Source: a virus (Duplodnaviria; Caudoviricetes). From it: a DNA stretch of 64,000 bases. Below, piece after piece: positions 1 to 55,907 of the stretch; the stretch's first letter is position 1; each line of letters opens with the position of its first letter. The stretch is taken from the IMG/VR virus record IMGVR_UViG_3300025840_004398. One strand, written 5' to 3'. The notes below the pieces were generated by a model. The model searched no databases. It saw nothing but the letters and a program-made list of their open reading frames with translations, and was not told where the DNA came from. The translations under genes and the position numbers were made by a program.

Positions 1-354
1 TCAGCACCTGTTGCTCATATATCGAATAATCAAATTGTTTGGTGTGAGGAATTGGAAGAGTTATTTCAGGCATCAGTAACTTTAGCAAACCCACCTTTTT
101 CATTTACAGATTCAGTAACATGGTCATCCTTTACAGGATTTGGAGGTAGTGGTGCCGGTGGATCTGGAGATATTAGTGCAGTATTAGCCGGAAATGGTTT
201 AACTGGTGGTGGTACAAGTGGTACTGTTCAAGTAAATGTTGGTGCTGGAAATGGTATCACCGTAACTGCTGATGCGGTTTCTCTTAATACAGGTTCTGCT
301 CATTTTACAGGAGGAGTACAAAAAGTAGAAATTGATGGTGGAAGTATATCATAA
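1..354 (+). CDS. 3' end of a virion/fibre-associated protein (truncated at window start)
   Basis: Frame is open from base 1 to TAA at 352-354. Contains GDISAVLAGNGLTGGG...SLNTGSAHF, also seen in ORF 3752, and ends EIDGGSIS. Confidence 0.75.
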   Translation, partial: SAPVAHISNNQIVWCEELEELFQASVTLANPPFSFTDSVTWSSFTGFGGSGAGGSGDISAVLAGNGLTGGGTSGTVQVNVGAGNGITVTADAVSLNTGSAHFTGGVQKVEIDGGSIS

Positions 355-484: not shown

Positions 485-3400
485 ATGGCACAAATTATTA
501 GACATAAAAAAGGTGTCTTGGAAAGTGTTAAAGATGCTACTTTTAAAAGAAAAGCGGAAATCCTTGTATCAACAGGTTCATCTGTAAGTGGACTTGATTC
601 ATCTGTTGTTTTCATCGGTAGAGATGGTTCTCGTTTAGATGCGGTTGGTAAAATATATACTGGTTCAAGTACACCAGATATAGCCAACAATTCTAGCTTA
701 GATGACTCTATTGACGGAATTCCATTTTATAATACTACTTCTGAGAAACTTTTTATTCTCAAGAAAAGTGGTAATGTAGAAGTAAAAACAACGGCTAATA
801 CAAATGGTACAGGAATTATTTCTGGGTCACAACAAATTGCAGCTTTAGGAGCTGGAATTGTTAGTTCATCTGCACAAACCATTACACACTTATTAGGAAC
901 TAATGTATACTCAAGTTCAGCACAAGTTGCTCAAGACTTGACTACTGATAATAGAAATATTAACTTAGGTAATGGTACATTTACTACTACAAATACAGGT
1001 TCATTTGGACACTTATCTGTAACTGGTAATACTACTATCGATGGTAATCTTACGTTAGGTGGAAATATTACAATTGGAGATGCATCTTCGGATAATATTT
1101 CATTTGGAGGACAAGTTTCTTCAGATATTATACCTGACCCAAGTAACACATATGACTTAGGTTCATCTACAAATAAATTTGCGGAAATTCATGGTACTAC
1201 AATCTATGGTTCAATTTCTGCAACCAATGGTGTAGTTTCTGGTTCAACTCAAACTATTGCACACTTGAACGGAAGTGGAGTAATCTCCGGTTCAGAACAA
1301 TTACTTAACGAAGCAACTGATTTCGGTACTGGTAGAGTAAGTGGTGATAACTTTGGAGATGTTGCTGGAACTTCTACATTTACTGGTTCATTTGTAGGTG
1401 ATGGTAGTGGTTTAACTGGTTTGGCAACAAACTTGATAATTTCATCTTCCGATGATGGTACTAATGATTCATTAGACTTGTTAAGTGATACATTGAATTT
1501 TGCGGGTACATCTAATGAAGTTGATGTAACTGTTGATTCGGCTACTAATACAGTACAAGTTGGATTAGTAACTAACCCAACTATTGGTGGTAACTTAACT
1601 GTTGCTGGTAACTTAGAGATACAAGGAACAACTACAACTGTTGATTCAACTACAATCACTTTAGGAGATAATATTCTTGAATTGAATGGTAGTGGAGTTG
1701 CAAATGGTGGTTTATTAGTAAAAGATGCTACTTCACCAAATACTATAAGTGGTTCTTTACTTTGGGATTCAACAAATGACTATTGGAAAGCTGGTGCACT
1801 TGGTTCTGAAGAAAGAATCTTATTAGCTAATGGTGATGGAATTGTTTCTCAATCTTTACTTAACGATTTAACTGATAGTGAAGTTAATCAATTAAAGAAT
1901 ATTGATACAACTACAATCTCTACAACTCAATGGGGTTATTTAGGTTCATCTGACCAAGGAATTGCAACTACTGATAATGTAACTTTTGCAAACATTAGTG
2001 GTTCTGCTCTTGATTTAACTGGATTATTACATACTGATGGAAATGCAACTATTGGTGGAACTCTTGGAGTAACTGGTCTTTCATCTCTTGGAAACATTAG
2101 TGGTTCAAGTATTGACTTAACTGGTAATGTGGTTGCTGATGGAAATGCAAGTGTTGGTGGAACTTTAACTGTAACTGGTAATACTTCATTGGCAGGAATT
2201 AGTGGTTCTTCACTTGATATTACTGGAAATGCAAAAATTGATGGTAATTTAGTACTTGGAGGAAATATTACAATTGGAGATGCATCTACTGATACAATCG
2301 CATTCGGTGGTGACTTGACAACTGATATTATTCCTGATGTTACTAATACTGTTGATTTAGGTTCTTCTACTAGAGTATTCGCAGAAGCACATGCAACTAA
2401 TTTCTATGGTACAACTAATGGAACTGTAAATGCAACCAATGGTGTAATCTCCGGTTCAGAACAATTACTTAACGAAGCAACTGATTTCGGTACTGGTCGT
2501 GTAAGTGGTGATAACTTCGGTGATGTAGCTGGAACTTCAACTTTCACAGGTTCATTCGTGGGAGATGGTTCAGGAATTACTGGACTTTCAACTACAATTT
2601 CAATAAGTGGTTCAGATGGTTCAAATGACCAAGTATCTTTATTGAACGGAGCAGTCACATTTGATGGTGGAACTGGTGTATCAACAACAGTTGCTTCTGA
2701 TACTGTAACTATCTCTGTACAAGATGCTAGTACATCTGTAAAAGGTATCGCTTCATTCGAAACTGACGATTTCTCAGTAACCGCTGGAGCAGTATCTATC
2801 AAAAATGGTGGAGTAAGAGCAGTAAACTTAAACGCTGATGTTGTTGGTGATGGTCTTGAATTAGATGGTACTAACAATGATATTAACGTTCTTTATGGTT
2901 CAACTGCAAACACTGCTGTTGCAGGTAACACTACAATTACTGTTACTGGTACTACAAACGAAATCGAAATCACTGGAACTTCTGCTCAGACATTAGGTGG
3001 TGGAGCAAGTTATACAATCGGTTTACCAAATGATGTAACTATCGGAAATGACTTGACTGTATCTAATGATTTATCAGTTAGTGGAAACGCAACAATCACA
3101 GGAAACCTTTCAGTTCTTGGTACAACTACAACTATTGATTCAACTACTGTACAACTTGGTGATAATGTATTAGAACTTAATTATGGTGGTGCACAAGATA
3201 CCGCTGGACTTTTAGTTACTGATTCAACCGCACCAAATGTAGTAAGTGGTTCATTGTTATGGGATGGTACTAATGACTACTGGAAAGGTGGAGCATTAGG
3301 TTCTGAAAAAGAACTTGCTAGATTAAATGGTTCGGATAACGATACTAACTTCGTTCAGAAATTAGATGGTAATGGATTGTTAGTAGATTCTGTACTTTCT

Positions 3401-3595
3401 GATGATGGTACTGATGCAACATTTAGTGGTGATTTAACAATCACAGGTCTAAGTGCTGGTGCTAACGGAGCATTTATTTATGTTGATACTAATGATAAAT
3501 TACAATCAGTAAACGCTTCACAAGCGGGTGATGTAATTCAATGGGATGGTTCATCATTCGTTGCTTCTAACGAAATTGATGGTGGTGCTTTCTAA
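485..3595 (+). CDS. Tail fibre-like virion protein (1036 aa)
   Basis: Mtd_N-like start (MAQIIRHKKG), G/S/T-rich beta-helix-like GNLTxGGNITIG repeats, internal 45-aa duplication (1277-1411 and 2441-2575), C-terminal EIDGGAF. Confidence 0.8.
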   Translation: MAQIIRHKKGVLESVKDATFKRKAEILVSTGSSVSGLDSSVVFIGRDGSRLDAVGKIYTGSSTPDIANNSSLDDSIDGIPFYNTTSEKLFILKKSGNVEVKTTANTNGTGIISGSQQIAALGAGIVSSSAQTITHLLGTNVYSSSAQVAQDLTTDNRNINLGNGTFTTTNTGSFGHLSVTGNTTIDGNLTLGGNITIGDASSDNISFGGQVSSDIIPDPSNTYDLGSSTNKFAEIHGTTIYGSISATNGVVSGSTQTIAHLNGSGVISGSEQLLNEATDFGTGRVSGDNFGDVAGTSTFTGSFVGDGSGLTGLATNLIISSSDDGTNDSLDLLSDTLNFAGTSNEVDVTVDSATNTVQVGLVTNPTIGGNLTVAGNLEIQGTTTTVDSTTITLGDNILELNGSGVANGGLLVKDATSPNTISGSLLWDSTNDYWKAGALGSEERILLANGDGIVSQSLLNDLTDSEVNQLKNIDTTTISTTQWGYLGSSDQGIATTDNVTFANISGSALDLTGLLHTDGNATIGGTLGVTGLSSLGNISGSSIDLTGNVVADGNASVGGTLTVTGNTSLAGISGSSLDITGNAKIDGNLVLGGNITIGDASTDTIAFGGDLTTDIIPDVTNTVDLGSSTRVFAEAHATNFYGTTNGTVNATNGVISGSEQLLNEATDFGTGRVSGDNFGDVAGTSTFTGSFVGDGSGITGLSTTISISGSDGSNDQVSLLNGAVTFDGGTGVSTTVASDTVTISVQDASTSVKGIASFETDDFSVTAGAVSIKNGGVRAVNLNADVVGDGLELDGTNNDINVLYGSTANTAVAGNTTITVTGTTNEIEITGTSAQTLGGGASYTIGLPNDVTIGNDLTVSNDLSVSGNATITGNLSVLGTTTTIDSTTVQLGDNVLELNYGGAQDTAGLLVTDSTAPNVVSGSLLWDGTNDYWKGGALGSEKELARLNGSDNDTNFVQKLDGNGLLVDSVLSDDGTDATFSGDLTITGLSAGANGAFIYVDTNDKLQSVNASQAGDVIQWDGSSFVASNEIDGGAF

Positions 3596-9513: not shown

Positions 9514-10149
9514 ATGGCTCAGATAATTAAATTAAAAAGAAGTTTAGTTCAAGGCAATGAACCAACTACTTCTGACTTATCACCTGGAGAATTAGCAATA
9601 AACGTTTATGATGGTAAAGTATTCCTAAGAAAGTCAGGCTCTGCTGTTGGTGATACCGTTCAAGAATTAGTAACAAATAACTTCACAGGTTCAGTTAACA
9701 TACAAGGTACAGTATCAGCTTCATTTTATCAAGGAGACGGTTCTCAACTGAGCGGTATTACAGTTGCTCAATCAGCAACAGTTAGAAAATATTATAATGG
9801 TTCAACTTGGGTAGTAACTCATAATTTAGATACCCCAAATCCATTAGTACAGACTTATGATAGTGATAATTATCAAATTATCCCACAATCAATTAGATTA
9901 ACAGATAACAATACTATAACAATTACTTTCCCAAGTATAGTTAGTGGTTCTGCAGTTGTAGGTAAAGGTGGTCATATTGTTAGTGGTTCGGTAGATGCCG
10001 ACAACGTTACTGGTTTCGATACAAAAGTAAAAACAAAATTAAATATAGAAGGAGTATTTAGTAGTTCACAACAAGTTGTCTTACAAGGTGATGTAACCGG
10101 AACTGCAGCTTCATCATCAATTGCAGAAATTGATGGAGGTAATATATAA
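9514..10149 (+). CDS. Short fibre/adaptor-like virion protein (211 aa)
   Basis: Clear Mtd_N-like start (KLKRS...P...L.PGELAIN.YDGKVF), a THNL...VQTYD...IIP domain shared with ORF 13264, and C-terminal EIDGGNI. Confidence 0.7.
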   Translation: MAQIIKLKRSLVQGNEPTTSDLSPGELAINVYDGKVFLRKSGSAVGDTVQELVTNNFTGSVNIQGTVSASFYQGDGSQLSGITVAQSATVRKYYNGSTWVVTHNLDTPNPLVQTYDSDNYQIIPQSIRLTDNNTITITFPSIVSGSAVVGKGGHIVSGSVDADNVTGFDTKVKTKLNIEGVFSSSQQVVLQGDVTGTAASSSIAEIDGGNI

Positions 10150-51282: not shown

Positions 51283-51891
51283 ATGATAAATGATATTTTT
51301 GTATTTGATGATATAATATCAAAAGAAAATCAAAATATTTTAGAAGATTATGTTAAAAACCATCCACATGGGTGGACTTATGGAAGTAATATATCCTATT
51401 TACAAACTGGATATGAATTTGGTCAGTATGTCTTACCTCCCACTTATAATTTTAATTCTAAAATTTTAGATATTATACACGAAATTGAAAAAAATGTTTG
51501 TGATAGATTAGAAAAAAAATTCCTAAAAAATTACAGATTCAAAATTAACTTACTAAAAGTTTCTGAAAATCCGATAGGTAAAGAAATCAAAAAAGCTATA
51601 CATATTGATAGAGATAATCCTCATGTATCGTTAGTTTACTACATAAACAATACTGATGGGAATACTTCATTTTATAATTTTAAAGGAGATAATCTTAAAA
51701 ACCTTCTTAAATATGTTGATAATAGTCAATTTAATAAATTTGAATTATTAAAAGAAGTTAGTCCAAAAAAAGGAAGAGTTGCTGTTTTTGATGGAATGAC
51801 ACCACATCATTCTAATTATCCAACTAAGAAAGATAGATATATTGTGAATATGAACATAGTAATAGAAGAAGATAAAAAAACTTTACTATGA
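51283..51891 (+). CDS. 2OG-Fe(II) oxygenase (prolyl-hydroxylase-like)
   Basis: HID, LVYYINNTDGNT, VSPKKGRVAVFDG...HHS.YP....R. Confidence 0.8.
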   Translation: MINDIFVFDDIISKENQNILEDYVKNHPHGWTYGSNISYLQTGYEFGQYVLPPTYNFNSKILDIIHEIEKNVCDRLEKKFLKNYRFKINLLKVSENPIGKEIKKAIHIDRDNPHVSLVYYINNTDGNTSFYNFKGDNLKNLLKYVDNSQFNKFELLKEVSPKKGRVAVFDGMTPHHSNYPTKKDRYIVNMNIVIEEDKKTLL

Positions 51892-52871
51892 ATACATTAG
51901 ATAAACAATACCAAGATTTACTTCAAGATATCTTAGAGAATGGGGTTGAAAAAGAAGATAGAACGGGTACTGGTACACTATCAGTATTTGGTAGACAAAT
52001 CAGACACAACCTTAACGATGAGTTTCCACTACTTACCACAAAGAAGATGGCAATCAAATCTATTATGACAGAACTTAAATGGTTCTTAAAAGGAGATACT
52101 AACATCAAATATTTAGTTGACAATGGATGTAACATTTGGAATGGTGATGCATATAAGAACTACCGTATGAAACAAGTTCCTCATGACCACTTTGAAACCG
52201 AAGAAGAGTTTATAGAACTTATCAAAACTAATGATAAGTTTGCAGAAAAGTGGGGTGAGTTAGGACCTATCTATGGTAAACAATGGAGAGATTGGAACAG
52301 AGTAGACCAAATCAAAACTATTATAGAAACTCTTAAAACTAATCCTGATAGTAGAAGAATTATGTTATCTGCTTGGAATGTTTCTGAATTAGACCAAGTA
52401 GTTTTACCTCCATGCCATTATGGTTTCCAACTATACACACGAGTACTTGATTTAGATGAAAGAATAGATTGGTATAATAAGAACTCAGACCCATCTCACC
52501 AATCAAGAGATTACTTCCACGAACATATGGATGATTATGCAGTTCCTCGTAGAGTTATTTCTCTTATGTGGAATCAACGTTCAGTAGATACGTTCTTAGG
52601 GTTACCATTTAACATTGCTTCTTACGCTATGTTATTACATTTGATTGCAAACGAAGTTAATATGATGCCTGGTGAAATCATTGGTAATCTTGGTGATACT
52701 CACTTATACAAAAATCATATTGAACAAGCAGAAGAACAAATCTCACGAGAACCAAAACCACATTTACCAAAATTAAAATTGAGTAATGTGGATATTTTAA
52801 ATGGTGAATTTGATTATGAAATTTTACATTATCATTCTCATCCAACAATTAAAGCACCTTTAAGTAATTAG
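51888..52871 (+). CDS. thyA: Thymidylate synthase
   Basis: DRTGTGT, FPLLTTKK, ELKWFLKG, LGPIYGKQWR, PDSRR, LPPCH, NQRSVD.FLGLPFNIASY, GDTHLYKNH. Confidence 0.97.
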   Translation: MNTLDKQYQDLLQDILENGVEKEDRTGTGTLSVFGRQIRHNLNDEFPLLTTKKMAIKSIMTELKWFLKGDTNIKYLVDNGCNIWNGDAYKNYRMKQVPHDHFETEEEFIELIKTNDKFAEKWGELGPIYGKQWRDWNRVDQIKTIIETLKTNPDSRRIMLSAWNVSELDQVVLPPCHYGFQLYTRVLDLDERIDWYNKNSDPSHQSRDYFHEHMDDYAVPRRVISLMWNQRSVDTFLGLPFNIASYAMLLHLIANEVNMMPGEIIGNLGDTHLYKNHIEQAEEQISREPKPHLPKLKLSNVDILNGEFDYEILHYHSHPTIKAPLSN

Positions 52872-52872
52872 T

Positions 52873-53181
52873 ATGGAAATAGATGTTTTAGATATTTTAA
52901 AATCATGGTCTATAAAATTAAATCCAAACAAAAAACAATCTAAAATAGCAAAAGATAGATTGGAAATATGTATAGGTACAGATACGACAGATAAATGTGA
53001 ATATGTAAATGAATATATATCCGGTAAAAAATGGTCTTGTGTTTGTAGTGTATGTGGATGTGCTATATCTGCTAAGGTATTTTCTCCAACTGTTAATGCA
53101 TGTCCTAAAAATAAATGGATAAATGTTGATAAAAATAACGGTTTGATTACGGATGATAAAAAAGATAGTACTCTATTTTAA
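52873..53181 (+). CDS. Small Cys-rich protein (DUF6171-like)
   Basis: RLEIC...C...C.VCGC...K......CP..KW. Confidence 0.6.
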   Translation: MEIDVLDILKSWSIKLNPNKKQSKIAKDRLEICIGTDTTDKCEYVNEYISGKKWSCVCSVCGCAISAKVFSPTVNACPKNKWINVDKNNGLITDDKKDSTLF

Positions 53182-53225: not shown

Positions 53226-55232
53226 ATGAGAGGAACATTAATAGGCAGTGATTTATTACAGAGTGGAAGCTCTGTAAAAATATTAGAAATAAATACTAAT
53301 ACATCAATAAATAACGAAGGTGTTTTAGAATTATACTTTGAAGGACTATTTGACATGATAGTTTCAAATAGTATAGATGAATTTCATTATATATATACAG
53401 AAGGTGTATCATGGCCGGATTCACCTGATTCCAAAGACTATCCTACTGCTAATTATTTTGAAGATGAGATAAAAAGACAGTGTTTGAATAAAGGACTAAC
53501 TTACACGGCTCATCCTGTTGTCAAAAATTCAATTACAGTACCATCAATAACAGATGCTGATAATAAATTTATATTAAGACAGGCTTTTGATGTATCTGCT
53601 ATAGTTGATTCTACTTATTGTGCAGATAAACTGGAGTTTTTTAAATTAATGAGTGGTTCGGAATACATTCCAAAAACTTACCTTTCTGGTTCATCTGATT
53701 TGTATTTAGATTCATTTGATTCTTCTTCCATTGATTTTAGCTCATCTGTTCCTAATTTTATAGAAAAATCAAGAAATGCAGAATACGATGTTAGTGAGTA
53801 TCCTGCTGTTGGTATTATATCTTCCAATGAACAATTAGATGAAAGAAAAGAAAGATTGGGAAGTAATAGACTAATACAAGAATTTATATCGGATGATTCA
53901 AATATTGAATCAAATAGAAGAACTGTAATAAGAAGTATAGATATATTGTATGGAAGTGATTTAGATGTATTACATCTTGGAGCTTATAAAGTTTCTACTG
54001 AGGTTGATGTAGACTTTTGCGAAGATTCATATGCTACACAAGAATTAGCAGGTGGAACTACATATAGTAGTCAAGTTTTAGAAGGACCTTCTCGAATTAA
54101 ATGGCTATTTAATAGACATTTACAAGATAATATATCTCATTATCACTGTGATGGAGATGACACTGTTTTAATGGCAGATGGTAGCGAAAAAACATTTGAA
54201 GATTTAGAACTAAATGATGTTGTAAAAACTCTATCATTTTCTTTAATTTCAGGTTCTTCTATAAATGGAGAGTCCGCTCCTGCAGAAGAATTCAGACATC
54301 ATTATGGTAACTTTGATTTACTTTCATCTTCTATAAGTGAAGTTACATCGTCTGTTGTAAATAAAACCGAAGTAAATCAAAGCGCTTTATACGTTAGTAT
54401 ATCTCTTGATAATGGTAGTACTATTATTGATGTTCCTGGTAGTAACTACCTTATAGAAGAGTCTGGTTCCGCATCTAATATGGTTTATTATACTGCTGCT
54501 AATTCACTCGTAGTAGGTGATAAAATAATTGTATATGAAGCTGCAACAGGACAATTGAGTAGATTAGAAGTTACAAATTTAGGAATAAAGTATCAGTACA
54601 ACAAATTTTTAGGTAGTGTGGATGTTGAACCTTGGGATACTTATCTTCCAGAAATTACAAATGGATTTTATGCTATTCAACACAACCCTTGTAATTATTG
54701 TGGAAACTATTGGTATCCATGTGGTAACTATTGGTGTGATTATAGTTGTTACTATTGTTCTGCTGGAGGTATTTGTTTTATAGCTGGAACTAAAATAAGT
54801 TTATCAAGTGGTGAAACTAAAAATATTGAAGATATTGTAGTAGGTGATGAAGTTGTATCATACAATGAACAAACAGGTTTTCAAGAAAATAAATCTGTAA
54901 CTGAGTTAAATCAACCTATCCACGATGATTTAGTAAAATACACTTTCTCTAATGGAACTGAAATTACTTGTACATATGACCACCCATTCTATGTAAACGA
55001 TATGAAGTTGGCATCTTATAAACCTGATTTGACAATTGCAAGATATGAATTAGGTGAAGTTTCTGCAATTAAAGTAGGTGATTTTGTATTTACACTTTCA
55101 GGTGATGTTGATGTAACGATTCAAAGTATTGAAGAACTACCACTAGTAGATACTCAAACATATATTTTCTCAGTTGAAGATAATAACAACTTTTACGCAA
55201 ACGAGATACTGACTCATAATAAAAAATTCTAA
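53226..55232 (+). CDS. Circularly permuted ATP-grasp ligase - Hint - Cys-rich peptide - Hint fusion (668 aa)
   Basis: N-terminal GSDLL...KILEINTN placed before ILRQ, DKLEF, IPKTY, PNFIEK, LIQEFI, RS (permuted ATP-grasp order); two Hint domains flank a 29-aa peptide. Confidence 0.7.
   Translation: MRGTLIGSDLLQSGSSVKILEINTNTSINNEGVLELYFEGLFDMIVSNSIDEFHYIYTEGVSWPDSPDSKDYPTANYFEDEIKRQCLNKGLTYTAHPVVKNSITVPSITDADNKFILRQAFDVSAIVDSTYCADKLEFFKLMSGSEYIPKTYLSGSSDLYLDSFDSSSIDFSSSVPNFIEKSRNAEYDVSEYPAVGIISSNEQLDERKERLGSNRLIQEFISDDSNIESNRRTVIRSIDILYGSDLDVLHLGAYKVSTEVDVDFCEDSYATQELAGGTTYSSQVLEGPSRIKWLFNRHLQDNISHYHCDGDDTVLMADGSEKTFEDLELNDVVKTLSFSLISGSSINGESAPAEEFRHHYGNFDLLSSSISEVTSSVVNKTEVNQSALYVSISLDNGSTIIDVPGSNYLIEESGSASNMVYYTAANSLVVGDKIIVYEAATGQLSRLEVTNLGIKYQYNKFLGSVDVEPWDTYLPEITNGFYAIQHNPCNYCGNYWYPCGNYWCDYSCYYCSAGGICFIAGTKISLSSGETKNIEDIVVGDEVVSYNEQTGFQENKSVTELNQPIHDDLVKYTFSNGTEITCTYDHPFYVNDMKLASYKPDLTIARYELGEVSAIKVGDFVFTLSGDVDVTIQSIEELPLVDTQTYIFSVEDNNNFYANEILTHNKKF
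54144..54686 (+). other. Hint domain 1 (N-terminally degenerate, C-terminal HN intact)
   Basis: H-C-D-G-D-D-T-V-L-M-A-D-G: position 1 aligns to His. No TxxH block B. SVDVEPWDTYL...QHN-P end. Confidence 0.65.
54687..54773 (+). other. Inter-Hint peptide PCNYCGNYWYPCGNYWCDYSCYYCSAGGI
   Basis: 29 aa with 6 Cys and 9 Tyr/Trp; CGNYW occurs twice. Confidence 0.6.
54774..55220 (+). other. Hint domain 2 (canonical)
   Basis: CFIAGTKI, IEDIVVGDEV, TCTYDHPF, TYIFSV.DNNNFYAN..LTHN-KKF. Confidence 0.85.
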
Positions 55233-55250: not shown

Positions 55251-55376
55251 ATGGAAAAAATAAATAGAAATTGGATAATAAATAATAGAGTACATCCTGT
55301 TGATGGAAATACTAAAGAGCAAATTAAATTAGCAATACAAGATTTTGTTAATAGAGTAAAAGCTAGACATTTGTAA
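55251..55376 (+). CDS. Small hypothetical protein (41 aa; not in ORF track)
   Basis: MEKINRNWIINNRVHPVDGNTKEQIKLAIQDFVNRVKARHL, directly after the Hint fusion. Confidence 0.45.
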   Translation: MEKINRNWIINNRVHPVDGNTKEQIKLAIQDFVNRVKARHL

Positions 55377-55445: not shown

Positions 55446-55907
55446 ATGGCAAAACGCAAGACTATTAAAAAATCAGAACCTAATATTATATCACAGGTTC
55501 AGAAAAAAACTCACAAATTAAACATTAAACCAATAGGTGAACAAGAAATGGAGGTAATCAAGTATGATGACCCCGATATTGTTATCCAAATGGAAAAGGA
55601 ATGGCCTGAGATGACAGATGAATTCAAAAGAATTATGTTTACTCAGTATGAACTATTCTGTAAAAAACAATCAAATTATGGTCCTGATAATATAGCAGCA
55701 GGAACTTCTTTGTCAACTGACGAAGATATTAAACTTTCTTTAACTGGTTTGTTTTTTAGAATTAATGACAAAGTTCAAAGAATTAAGAACTTAATTGTAT
55801 TAGGAAAAAAAGACAATGTTGGAGAAGTTATTGATGATACCTTTCAAGACTTATCTATATATGGAATTATTGCCCAAATCGTTAAAAATGATAAGTGGGG
55901 AAAATAA
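55446..55907 (+). CDS. DUF1599/Nmad1-like (nucleotide modification associated) protein
   Basis: LFCKKQSNYG..N...RINDKVQRIKNL...E.IDDTFQDLSIYGII. Confidence 0.65.
   Translation: MAKRKTIKKSEPNIISQVQKKTHKLNIKPIGEQEMEVIKYDDPDIVIQMEKEWPEMTDEFKRIMFTQYELFCKKQSNYGPDNIAAGTSLSTDEDIKLSLTGLFFRINDKVQRIKNLIVLGKKDNVGEVIDDTFQDLSIYGIIAQIVKNDKWGK

Follow-up and report, generated by a model that had tools for sequence, protein, structure and literature searches.

A phage gene family joining a predicted permuted ATP-grasp ligase, a Hint domain and a six-cysteine tail, and an optional BIL-type Hint inserted in the tail

A gene of an uncultured aquatic phage encodes, in a single polypeptide of 668 aa, four parts: an ATP-grasp domain, a Hint domain (Hint 1), a short peptide with six cysteines and a further Hint domain (Hint 2), after which the protein ends with the residues KKF (Table 1). 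The ligase domain, Hint 1 and the Cys tail form the conserved unit of a layout common to hundreds of phage lineages. We consider it probable that this unit releases a peptide and works together with a 41-aa partner protein, and that Hint 2 is a mobile BIL which stands outside this design. The four elements had been described in an earlier note made from the DNA alone, and all of them are in place. Their arrangement is not due to chance, as 169 of 173 distinct homologues show the same spacing of the six Cys.

Table 1 Features of the gene and its neighbours within the window, the whole 64-kb stretch of viral DNA that was analysed.
Feature	Position	Strand	Basis
Whole ORF, P0001 (ATP-grasp, Hint 1, six-Cys peptide, Hint 2, KKF)	53226..55232	+	homologues and clusters
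Circularly permuted ATP-grasp ligase domain (predicted), aa 1-306	53226..54143	+	alignments, predicted model, fold matches
Hint 1, aa 307-487	54144..54686	+	model, RadA intein Z, weak BIL profile match, conservation
29-aa peptide with six Cys and nine aromatics, aa 488-516	54687..54773	+	homologue tails; model
Hint 2, BIL-type mini-Hint, aa 517-665	54774..55220	+	Pfam, NCBIfam, structure Z, distribution, identity
C-terminal flank KKF, aa 666-668	55221..55229	+	resembles the K-[LVIF] end of tails without Hint 2
41-aa basic protein ending ..KARHL	55251..55376	+	directly downstream in 82/82 loci; predicted complex
102-aa six-Cys protein (DUF6171-like lead)	52873..53181	+	directly upstream in 74/81 loci; C-terminal tag ..STLF
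2OG-Fe(II) oxygenase, 202 aa, C-terminal cassette tag ..KKTLL	51283..51891	+	neighbourhood and tag

The ligase domain, Hint 1 and the six-cysteine tail

More than 530 homologues of the whole ORF were counted. The family of the ligase-Hint 1-Cys tail unit is abundant in aquatic phages (323 clusters at 50% identity); all these clusters come from uncultured phages and none carries an annotation. The tblastn searches of the GenBank phages with the protein and with a 500-aa relative returned unrelated inteins or nothing, and the family was found in no cultured phage. An estuary contig, 98.4% identical, retains the entire ligase-Hint 1-peptide-Hint 2 arrangement. The locus is also present in public runs labelled as RNA, a label that is not proof of transcription.

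The N-terminal domain had been read as a circularly permuted ATP-grasp, and its predicted structure agrees with this assignment. The motifs are in place (LEINTN at aa 20, FILRQ at 115, ADK at 133, PKT at 149 and IQEFI at 217), and the AlphaFold model of aa 1-306 (pLDDT 80) resembles along its full length YjfC/YgiC, glutathionylspermidine synthetase (GspS) and eukaryotic glutathione synthetase (GS), with Foldseek E values of 1e-6 to 1e-4. The comparison of the model with YgiC, GspS and the yeast and human GS gave VIA Z values of 10.6-9.1 over residues 1-298, whereas the non-permuted ATP-grasps (TTL, RimK, LysX, Ddl) matched it from residue ~50 to 300 only, with Z of 5-6.5, as expected of a permuted topology. 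The assignment is supported by this predicted model (TM 0.4-0.5, Z about 10) together with the motifs. No Pfam or NCBIfam family, GSP_synth, CP_ATPgrasp and GSH_synth_ATP included, matched aa 1-500 at E up to 1, and a profile of the domain matched nothing relevant among the PDB sequences.

Seven residues (D9, E21, N23, R118, Q218, R236, D239) are invariant in an alignment of 48 N-domain sequences; three others (K114, K135, E219) are at least 90% conserved there, and invariant in an alignment of 18 sequences. The alignment contains the putative Mg/ATP ligands, i.e. the E-x-N motif, Lys/Arg residues for the phosphates and the hinge Q-E-[FY]-[IV]. By structural-alignment offsets, D9, E21 and N23 presumably correspond to D318, E330 and N332 of the E. 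coli GspS and to E144 and N146 of the human GS. The predicted phage domain shares with GspS, YgiC/YjfC and eukaryotic GS the fold, the strand order and an N-terminally placed Mg-binding E-x-N hairpin, but it has no detectable sequence similarity to them and lacks the pre-ATP-grasp region of YgiC (the alignment begins at YgiC residue 94), which makes it shorter by ~80-90 residues. A further difference is the separate 41-aa protein that is predicted to pack against the sheet in the phage system. Enzymes of the YgiC type are described as acid-amine ligases whose substrate is unknown (PMC12506659).

Hint 1 extends from H307, at position 1, to H486-N487. The description of this domain in the earlier note (His at position 1, no TxxH, terminal HN) was confirmed, and the F-block acid (D471) is also kept. 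Three features of canonical inteins are missing: the Cys/Ser/Thr at position 1, the block-B TxxH and the Cys/Ser/Thr at +1, the last position being occupied by Pro488 in the window protein and varying through the family. Structure prediction domain by domain gave a Hint fold for Hint 1, as it gave an ATP-grasp fold for the N-domain: in the Hint 1 model (pLDDT 86) residues 8-188 align with residues 1-172 of the PhoRadA intein (Z 14.4-15.2, rmsd 2.2-2.4). The Hint 1 profile matched weakly the BIL domain 2LWY of C. thermocellum (E 0.0065).

Hint 1 was found in every full-length member inspected. A MAFFT alignment of 123 full-length representatives placed the HN at the expected position in 113; among the others, the HN lay past a longer insert in 3 and the Asn followed Y, N, G or S in 6. 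The terminal Asn was missing in 1/123, and 1/123 was not judgeable. The commonest residues at position 1 were G, H, K, I, S, T and N, with no Cys among them. Hint 1 is a Hint domain that has lost the N-terminal nucleophile and the block-B His yet keeps the C-terminal Asn machinery. Because the N-terminal Cys is never present and the terminal Asn is nearly always kept, Hint 1 is predicted from these sequences to cut only C-terminally, at N487|P488.

The 29-aa peptide, whose length, six Cys and nine aromatics were confirmed in the translation, is the family's C-terminal tail, ended here ahead of the terminal Lys motif. The close relatives without Hint 2 stop 25-37 residues past Hint 1, and a Lys is found within the final four residues in 139 of these 141 plain tails. 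The fixed Cys spacing with variable intervening residues, to be looked for in homologues according to the earlier note, was indeed found in them. Through the superfamily, both the length and the pattern of the tail are hypervariable, and some members have only 4-8 residues beyond the HN, indicating that a released peptide is not a universal product. Tail residues are at pLDDT <50 in the predicted model.

Hint 2 and its insertion site

Hint 2 has the canonical residues that had been assigned to it, namely C517, T583-Y-D-H586 (TYDH) and H664-N665, followed by KKF; the upstream junction had been placed one residue too early, at I515|C516, and the true site is I516|C517. The domain matches Pfam Intein_splicing (2.5e-11) and NCBIfam intein_Nterm (1.5e-9). 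Its best structural matches are BIL domains, those of Tetrahymena BUBL BIL2 (Z 24.1, 27% identity) and of C. thermocellum (Z 20.6), with identities between 27 and 30% over the two. Hint 2 shares with the A-type BILs and BUBL1 BIL2 (PDB 6Y75/6TMM; C. thermocellum BIL 2LWY) the fold, Cys1, the TxxH and the terminal HN, and resembles them also in having no Cys/Ser/Thr at +1 (Lys666 occupies this position), no homing endonuclease, and a location in a variable region. All the listed features of an A-type BIL are thus present in it. The A-type BILs have the HN and no +1 nucleophile (PMC7765530), and BUBL BIL2 forms a Lys isopeptide without ATP, its N-terminal cargo being dispensed onto the Lys (PMC8616854).

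Unlike an intein in a conserved site of a conserved host protein, Hint 2 lies in a C-terminal tail that is hypervariable, only 2-3 residues short of its end. It is carried by 26 of the 173 members, and the core tree requires it to have been gained or lost at least 4-5 times. Alleles without the intein-like domain, which the earlier note had named as evidence against its reading, were found: 141 of the 173 distinct close homologues lack Hint 2. The identities of the cores and of the Hint 2 domains do not run in parallel. The window protein and its closest relative are 76% identical in the core and 58% in Hint 2; a relative with 43% core identity has a Hint 2 that is 74% identical, and in two alleles with 93% identical cores the Hint 2 domains are just 44% identical. 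The tail of the window protein reads ..CSAGGI-Hint 2-KKF, that of the 500-aa relatives P0019 and P0024, otherwise near-identical, ..CSAGGGGLK. By these sequence comparisons, Hint 2 is an optional, horizontally exchanged BIL-type insertion located just ahead of the terminal Lys motif of the tail. No allele of this phage without Hint 2 appeared in contigs from four public runs, although contigs cannot prove absence. The window allele offers a natural experiment on BIL/intein mobility without a homing endonuclease.

In other members, an S74-like self-cleaving domain or one to three tandem Hints take this insertion site; together with the two Hint 2 types, they show that the position near the terminal Lys has received insertions again and again. 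The six S74-like extensions all match PF13884, the best with an E of 3e-4, which lies under the curated Pfam cut-off. These members have, in likeness to the Peptidase S74 intramolecular chaperone domains of phage tail spikes, the tail followed by ..GK|S-[DE]-x-x-x-K.. and a domain of ~80 aa, and a cleavage ahead of the Ser would yield a native-like ..GK end. The module is not part of the window protein and is a mere parallel to Hint 2.

Gene neighbourhood and the predicted 41-aa partner

The gene forms a conserved cassette with those of the 102-aa six-Cys protein upstream and the 41-aa protein downstream. The 41-aa protein is predicted to form a complex with the ligase domain (ipSAE 0.84; best of three controls 0.00); 58 of 80 solved complexes and 2 of 110 mismatched pairs scored at this level. 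At least 80% of the contacts were common to three runs, with a pLDDT of the partner of at least 76. In the predicted complex the small protein packs against the sheet from the side facing away from the catalytic residues, which suggests a subunit and not a substrate.

A 2OG-Fe(II) oxygenase family is found upstream of the gene in 26 loci, and a C-terminal tag of the pattern K-x-[ST]-[LI]-[LI] is common to ten unrelated neighbour families. The gene neighbours of the relatives include a Trp halogenase, 2OG oxygenases and a radical SAM enzyme. The halogenase, radical SAM, DUF6071 and other tailoring genes of the relatives are absent within the 64-kb window. The Trp count of the tail showed no useful difference between loci with and without the neighbouring Trp halogenase (2.5 vs 2.1). 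A role in DNA modification, for which the neighbouring ThyA and DUF1599 were considered, was rejected because this neighbourhood is specific to the window's lineage.

Proposed peptide release and rival explanations

The proposed route, conditional in each of its chemical steps, would start from a fixed polypeptide consisting of the permuted ATP-grasp amide ligase, Hint 1 and a short tail of hypervariable sequence in which six Cys are fixed and a Lys lies near the end. N487 would cyclise and cut N487|P488, the sole reaction left to Hint 1, and would thereby expose, next to the ligase, a free alpha-amine on the Cys-rich peptide. The ligase, in complex with the 41-aa protein, would then amidate, cyclise or conjugate the freed peptide. 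The ligase gene lies in a cassette with those of the six-Cys 102-aa protein and the 2OG oxygenase, the products of the last two having a common C-terminal tag. By analogy with the A-type BILs and BUBL BIL2, Hint 2 would remove itself by two reactions, an N-S acyl shift at I516|C517 and a cyclisation of the Asn at N665|K666, leaving a near-native ..GGI-KKF end or one rejoined via the Lys amine. A broader version is possible, though we would sooner expect it not to hold: a new route to a modified peptide or peptide tag in which an Asn-cyclisation-only Hint frees a hypervariable Cys-rich core from the same ligase that processes it, the shared C-terminal tag recruits unrelated tailoring enzymes (2OG oxygenases, the Trp halogenase, the radical SAM enzyme), and the conserved terminal Lys serves both as the handle for ligation and as the landing site at which BILs can enter and leave harmlessly.

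The order HN-peptide-Cys1 fits precisely the chemistry required of a dedicated two-Hint cassette, in which Hint 1 frees the N-terminus, Hint 2 thioesterifies the C-terminus and the activated 29-aa peptide is cyclised head-to-tail or conjugated to a target (SICLOPPS- or BUBL-like). The structural closeness of Hint 2 to BUBL BIL2, a dispenser of N-terminal cargo onto Lys, points in the same direction, as does the stability of the variant in its lineage, given the whole arrangement in the estuary contig. However, Hint 2 is missing from most of the close homologues and most of the superfamily, is horizontally exchanged among alleles and repeatedly gained and lost, and gives way at its site to non-homologous S74-like modules or tandem Hints; KKF, moreover, looks like the normal terminus of the tail, as would be expected if the insertion restored its host protein. 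The proposal of the earlier note that both Hints form one dedicated excision cassette is not supported on these grounds, and we regard this explanation as improbable. The mobile-element behaviour of Hint 2 and the accumulation of Hints at the locus, as many as four in tandem, would agree with both Hints being selfish or decayed inteins, the tail being the C-extein of the ligase and Hint 1 an old, fixed and degenerate intein. Yet no full-length allele without Hint 1 was seen among 115 full-length representatives, and Hint 1 has no splicing route, its position 1 being never Cys and its +1 residue never Cys in the window's subfamily. A decaying element would also lose the terminal Asn and the F-block acid, both of which are strongly constrained, and we judge this origin to be very improbable.

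The absence of any peptide release deserves more weight than either of these, although we think it unlikely. Hint 1 would then be a domesticated, non-cleaving scaffold or docking domain and the tail a Zn/Fe-binding or redox module, and the ligase would act on other substrates, such as a polyamine, some other metabolite or the tag-bearing C-termini of enzymes encoded nearby. Six fixed Cys beside an invariant His could bind metal, and the invariant HN with the adjacent Cys could be a metal site instead of a cleavage site; still, a terminal Asn that is kept in nearly all members while the next residue is free is a signature of Asn cyclisation and not of a metal site. The AlphaFold tail has no confident fold, unlike typical zinc ribbons, and the hypervariable length and pattern of the tail through the superfamily would be unusual in a cofactor site. 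The members with almost no tail past the HN are in agreement with the absence of release, and so is the C-terminal tag common to ten unrelated neighbour families. Protein C-termini are the targets of some ATP-grasp enzymes, RimK and TTL among them. The acid-amine ligase activity of the YgiC-type enzymes, with its unknown substrate, would be compatible as well (PMC12506659).

Peptide release by Hint 1, the reading that we prefer, has partial parallels in known systems. The earlier note had known of no described system with this architecture; this stands for the ligase-Hint-peptide fusion, found in no paper by our literature search, but not for the Hint-cargo-Hint layout, which is known from the Tetrahymena BUBL loci, with the Lys amine as acceptor. 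The BUBL cargo is a ubiquitin-like domain, whereas here it is a 29-aa Cys-rich peptide; the upstream Hint, here joined to an ATP-grasp ligase, is devoid of an N-terminal nucleophile. The phage host and the optional presence of Hint 2 in the family are further differences.

The hypervariable Cys core and a possible built-in release step would fit a RiPP system, as would the tailoring-type neighbour enzymes of relatives, of which the halogenase and the radical SAM enzyme are absent from the window. Fusions of enzyme and core peptide are found in borosins such as OphMA, and ATP-grasp enzymes in RiPPs such as graspetides and microviridins. The phage protein resembles the borosins in joining the enzyme and a C-terminal core in one polypeptide, with a hypervariable core on a fixed scaffold, and differs from the graspetides and microviridins in that its ATP-grasp is predicted to be of the permuted GspS type and not of the RimK type. 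We know of no RiPP class with Hint-mediated release of the core. If Hint 1 truly frees the tail, it would be, to our knowledge, the first Hint in the role of a built-in leader protease for a ribosomal peptide, and also the first such Hint fused to a permuted ATP-grasp ligase. Both a Hint predicted to cut only C-terminally and a BIL with possible ligation to Lys would be of practical interest for protein engineering.

A Hint beside a hypervariable cargo, with a release thought to be autoproteolytic, is also known from Pretoxin-HINT (PF07591) and the hedgehog C-terminal Hint. In contrast to these, only the C-terminal cut would be possible for Hint 1, because Cys1 is missing. Other differences from the polymorphic toxins are the small Cys-rich cargo without a toxin domain, the lack of a visible immunity gene and the N-terminal partner, which is an enzyme and not a delivery stalk. 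Pfam PT-HINT gave weak matches to Hint 2 (1.5e-5) and to relatives.

Domain architecture of the ligase-Hint protein

Within the single ORF encoding the protein, Pfam and NCBIfam matches are confined to the last quarter, aa 517-665 (Intein_splicing, 2.5e-11; intein_Nterm, 1.5e-9). The nucleotide coordinates that the earlier note had given for the parts of this ORF are exact; its second junction (I515/C516) was misnumbered by one residue.

Features of the ligase-Hint ORF and of other window genes
Feature	Nucleotides	Strand	Residues and ends	Basis
Ligase-Hint protein, single ORF	53226-55232	+	668 aa	ORF call
Hint 1			position 1, H307; domain end, H486-N487	residue mapping
Peptide			aa 488-516; length 29 (Cys, 6; aromatic residues, 9)	residue mapping
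Hint 2			position 1, C517; TYDH, 583-586; domain end, H664-N665; protein C-terminus, KKF	
Tagged 2OG oxygenase	51283-51891		C-terminus ..KKTLL	
ThyA-like gene	51888-52871		327 aa	
Tagged six-Cys protein	52873-53181		C-terminus ..STLF	
Small basic protein	55251-55376		41 aa	
DUF1599 ('nucleotide modification associated') gene	55446-55907			
Structural-region ORF	52-354			
Structural-region ORF	485-3595			
Structural-region ORF	9514-10149			

A 48-homologue alignment was built and the N-domain (aa 1-306) was modelled (pLDDT 80, pTM 0.77). The best Foldseek PDB matches of the model were YjfC, YgiC, glutathionylspermidine synthetase (GspS) and the yeast and human glutathione synthetases (GS) (E 1e-6 to 1e-4), and VIA-align over model residues 1-298 gave Z 10.6 with YgiC, 10.5 with yeast GS and 9.1 with GspS. 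The non-permuted ATP-grasps (TTL, RimK, LysX/ArgX, Ddl) align only from residue ~50 onward (Z 5-6.5), as expected of a permuted ATP-grasp opening with the E-x-N hairpin. AlphaFold DB and ESM Atlas structure matches agree (GSP_synth, 'circularly permuted ATP-grasp'). Conservation in the alignment is complete or reaches at least 90% at D9, E21, N23, K114, R118, K135, Q218-E219, R236 and D239. By structural-alignment offsets, D9, E21 and N23 presumably fall on GspS D318, E330 and N332, and we take E21 and N23 to fall on human GS E144 and N146. Because no ATP-grasp model matched the N-domain at the sequence level (Pfam, NCBIfam, PDB sequences), the assignment rests on predicted fold and motifs, which support the circularly permuted ligase first proposed from sequence. 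YgiC belongs to the acid-amine ligases, and its substrate is unknown (PMC12506659). Among cellular proteins, the N-domain finds its nearest structural match within AlphaFold DB A0A7C5WAC9 (residues 205-473, E 1.7e-12), named 'Piwi domain-containing', which may be a ligase of this type fused to an Argonaute-like protein.

The model of aa 300-668 (pLDDT 86) contains two Hint folds, the linker between them being unmodelled (pLDDT <50). Hint 1 (model residues 8-188) superposes on residues 1-172 of the PhoRadA intein (Z 14.4-15.2), which places both of its end residues in register with those of the intein, and its profile weakly matches a C. thermocellum BIL (bacterial-intein-like) domain (E 0.0065). 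The His at position 1 and terminal HN described in the earlier note are found in a predicted Hint fold. Among the 123 full-length representatives, the HN is in its expected place in 113 and follows a longer insert in 3 more; the Asn is kept behind Y, N, G or S in 6, is missing in 1, and could not be judged in 1. The residues seen most often at position 1 are G, H, K, I, S, T and N, Cys not being among them, and Asp or His occupies the F-block position (D471) in 98/113. The residues that Hint 1 keeps are exactly those required to cleave by Asn cyclisation; it has none that an N-terminal thioester would require. From this pattern we infer that it would cleave. Its presence in every full-length superfamily member inspected makes it a fixed part of the protein.

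The Cys-rich tail and the mobile Hint 2

A search of 5.8 billion proteins yielded >530 homologues, all metagenome-derived and annotated as 'hypothetical proteins'; an N-domain profile search gave 323 clusters at 50% identity, in which the N-domain always starts at residue 1. None of the GenBank phages searched carries a member. The window's own locus was found in freshwater, estuary and lagoon samples, and Tara ocean samples are among the sources of relatives. Six Cys with the spacing C-x(1-2)-C-x(3-10)-C-x(3-4)-C-x(3-4)-C-x(1-2)-C are kept in 169 of 173 distinct close homologues, in line with the fixed spacing anticipated for the inter-Hint peptide; the residue directly after the Hint 1 HN is variable (S, A, V, I, P, N, G, others). 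Most of these homologues (141) stop 25-37 residues after that HN, 26 have Hint 2 and 6 another extension. Lys is among the last four residues in 139/141 of the plain tails.

Hint 2 is canonical, as the earlier note had read it, and its best structural match is BIL2 of the Tetrahymena BUBL1 locus, of Hint-cargo-Hint layout (Z 24.1, 27% identity), followed by the C. thermocellum BIL (Z 20.6) and then by inteins. A maximum-likelihood core tree (N-domain plus Hint 1) requires at least 4-5 changes to account for the presence of Hint 2 and at least 3 for the S74-like extension. Core and Hint 2 identities are discordant: 76% and 58% between the window protein and its closest relative, P0002; 41-43% and 74-75% between the window protein and P0003, P0005 and P0006; 93% and 44% between P0006 and P0010; 68% and 86% between P0010 and P0011. 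Some members carry at the same site ..GK/S-[DE]-x-x-x-K.. and then a ~80-aa domain (6/6 match Peptidase_S74, best E 3e-4, below cut-off). More distant members without the Cys tail have 1, 2 or 3 tandem Cys1...HN Hints directly after Hint 1, their protein ends being HN/K, HN/KL or HN/KF. The window tail reads ..CYYCSAGGI, then Hint 2, then KKF; two 500-aa relatives without Hint 2 (P0019, P0024), whose tail is otherwise near-identical, end in ..CYYCSAGGGGLK, other such members being nearer to the window on the core tree. The flanks of Hint 2 thus look like a split native tail. Tree, discordant identities, site reuse and flanks all point to Hint 2 as an accessory, mobile module. In BUBL, a Lys epsilon-amine accepts the N-flank of BIL2 in an ATP-independent reaction (PMC8616854), and A-type BILs have HN, no +1 nucleophile and a variable-region location (PMC7765530); on these grounds Hint 2 may be read as a BIL-type element landing just before the conserved terminal Lys, which would probably excise itself and leave a near-native tail end behind.

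The best-supported reading is a self-processing ligase-Hint-peptide fusion, near whose peptide end a mobile BIL was inserted in the window's lineage: Hint 1 would release the peptide's amino end next to the ligase, which would then act on the peptide so freed. The earlier note had proposed both Hints as one dedicated excision cassette, which is chemically possible in the window's allele but is not the arrangement kept by the family, since the intein-less alleles it had named as counting against the idea are the 141/173 homologues ending after the tail, and Hint 2 is mobile. The main rival to the self-processing fusion is a metal module without cleavage.

Two further observations concern Hints elsewhere. 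P0258 and P0286 (904-906 aa) have up to three extra tandem Cys1...HN Hints after Hint 1, the next Cys1 following HN at once or 1-5 residues on, as natural tandem arrays. A lagoon-metagenome contig (run X10, record 13) matches window 54774-55001 at ~91% identity, the match starting at base 1 of the Cys codon that opens Hint 2; its 193 bases upstream do not resemble the window, so a related Hint 2 may have a different N-terminal context.

Neighbouring cassette and shared C-terminal tags

A ~95-100-aa six-Cys protein is encoded directly upstream of the ligase gene in 74/81 loci, and a ~45-aa basic protein ending IK-x-KHL directly downstream in 82/82. Co-folding of aa 1-515 with the window's 41-aa version gave ipSAE 0.84 (best of three controls, 0.00), a mark reached by 58/80 solved complexes and 2/110 mismatched pairs; runs had at least 80% of contacts in common, with partner pLDDT 76-84. 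This prediction supports binding to the ligase domain. The predicted contacts (ligase residues 6, 8, 10, 12, 15-19, 22, odd numbers of 231-241, and 245-260) lie on the central-sheet face opposite D9, E21, N23 and R236, which suggests a small structural subunit, perhaps substituting for the pre-ATP-grasp part that YgiC has and the N-domain lacks.

The tag K-x-[ST]-[LI]-[LIF] ends ten unrelated neighbour families (69-100% of members; loci L001-L083, no more than 5 kb from the homologous gene), including several 2OG oxygenases, DUF6071, the six-Cys protein, a Trp halogenase (E 2.8e-88) and a family that matches radical SAM weakly, under the cut-off (E 0.005). Neither the ligase nor its 46-aa partner ever bears it. 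Missing from the 64-kb window are the relatives' halogenase, radical SAM enzyme and remaining tagged genes. Of the 57 ORFs there, only 2 are tagged, both of them upstream cassette genes. They are separated by the untagged ThyA-like gene, which overlaps the stop of the 2OG oxygenase gene by 4 nt. The 334-kb phage-like contig L001 carries, at 1-454, a partial gene that strongly matches the RuBisCO large subunit in Pfam, beside a carbamoyltransferase and the cassette. The three structural-region ORFs share a second, distinct C-terminal tag, E-[IV]-D-G-G-x-[IF]-x (..EIDGGSIS, ..EIDGGAF, ..EIDGGNI).
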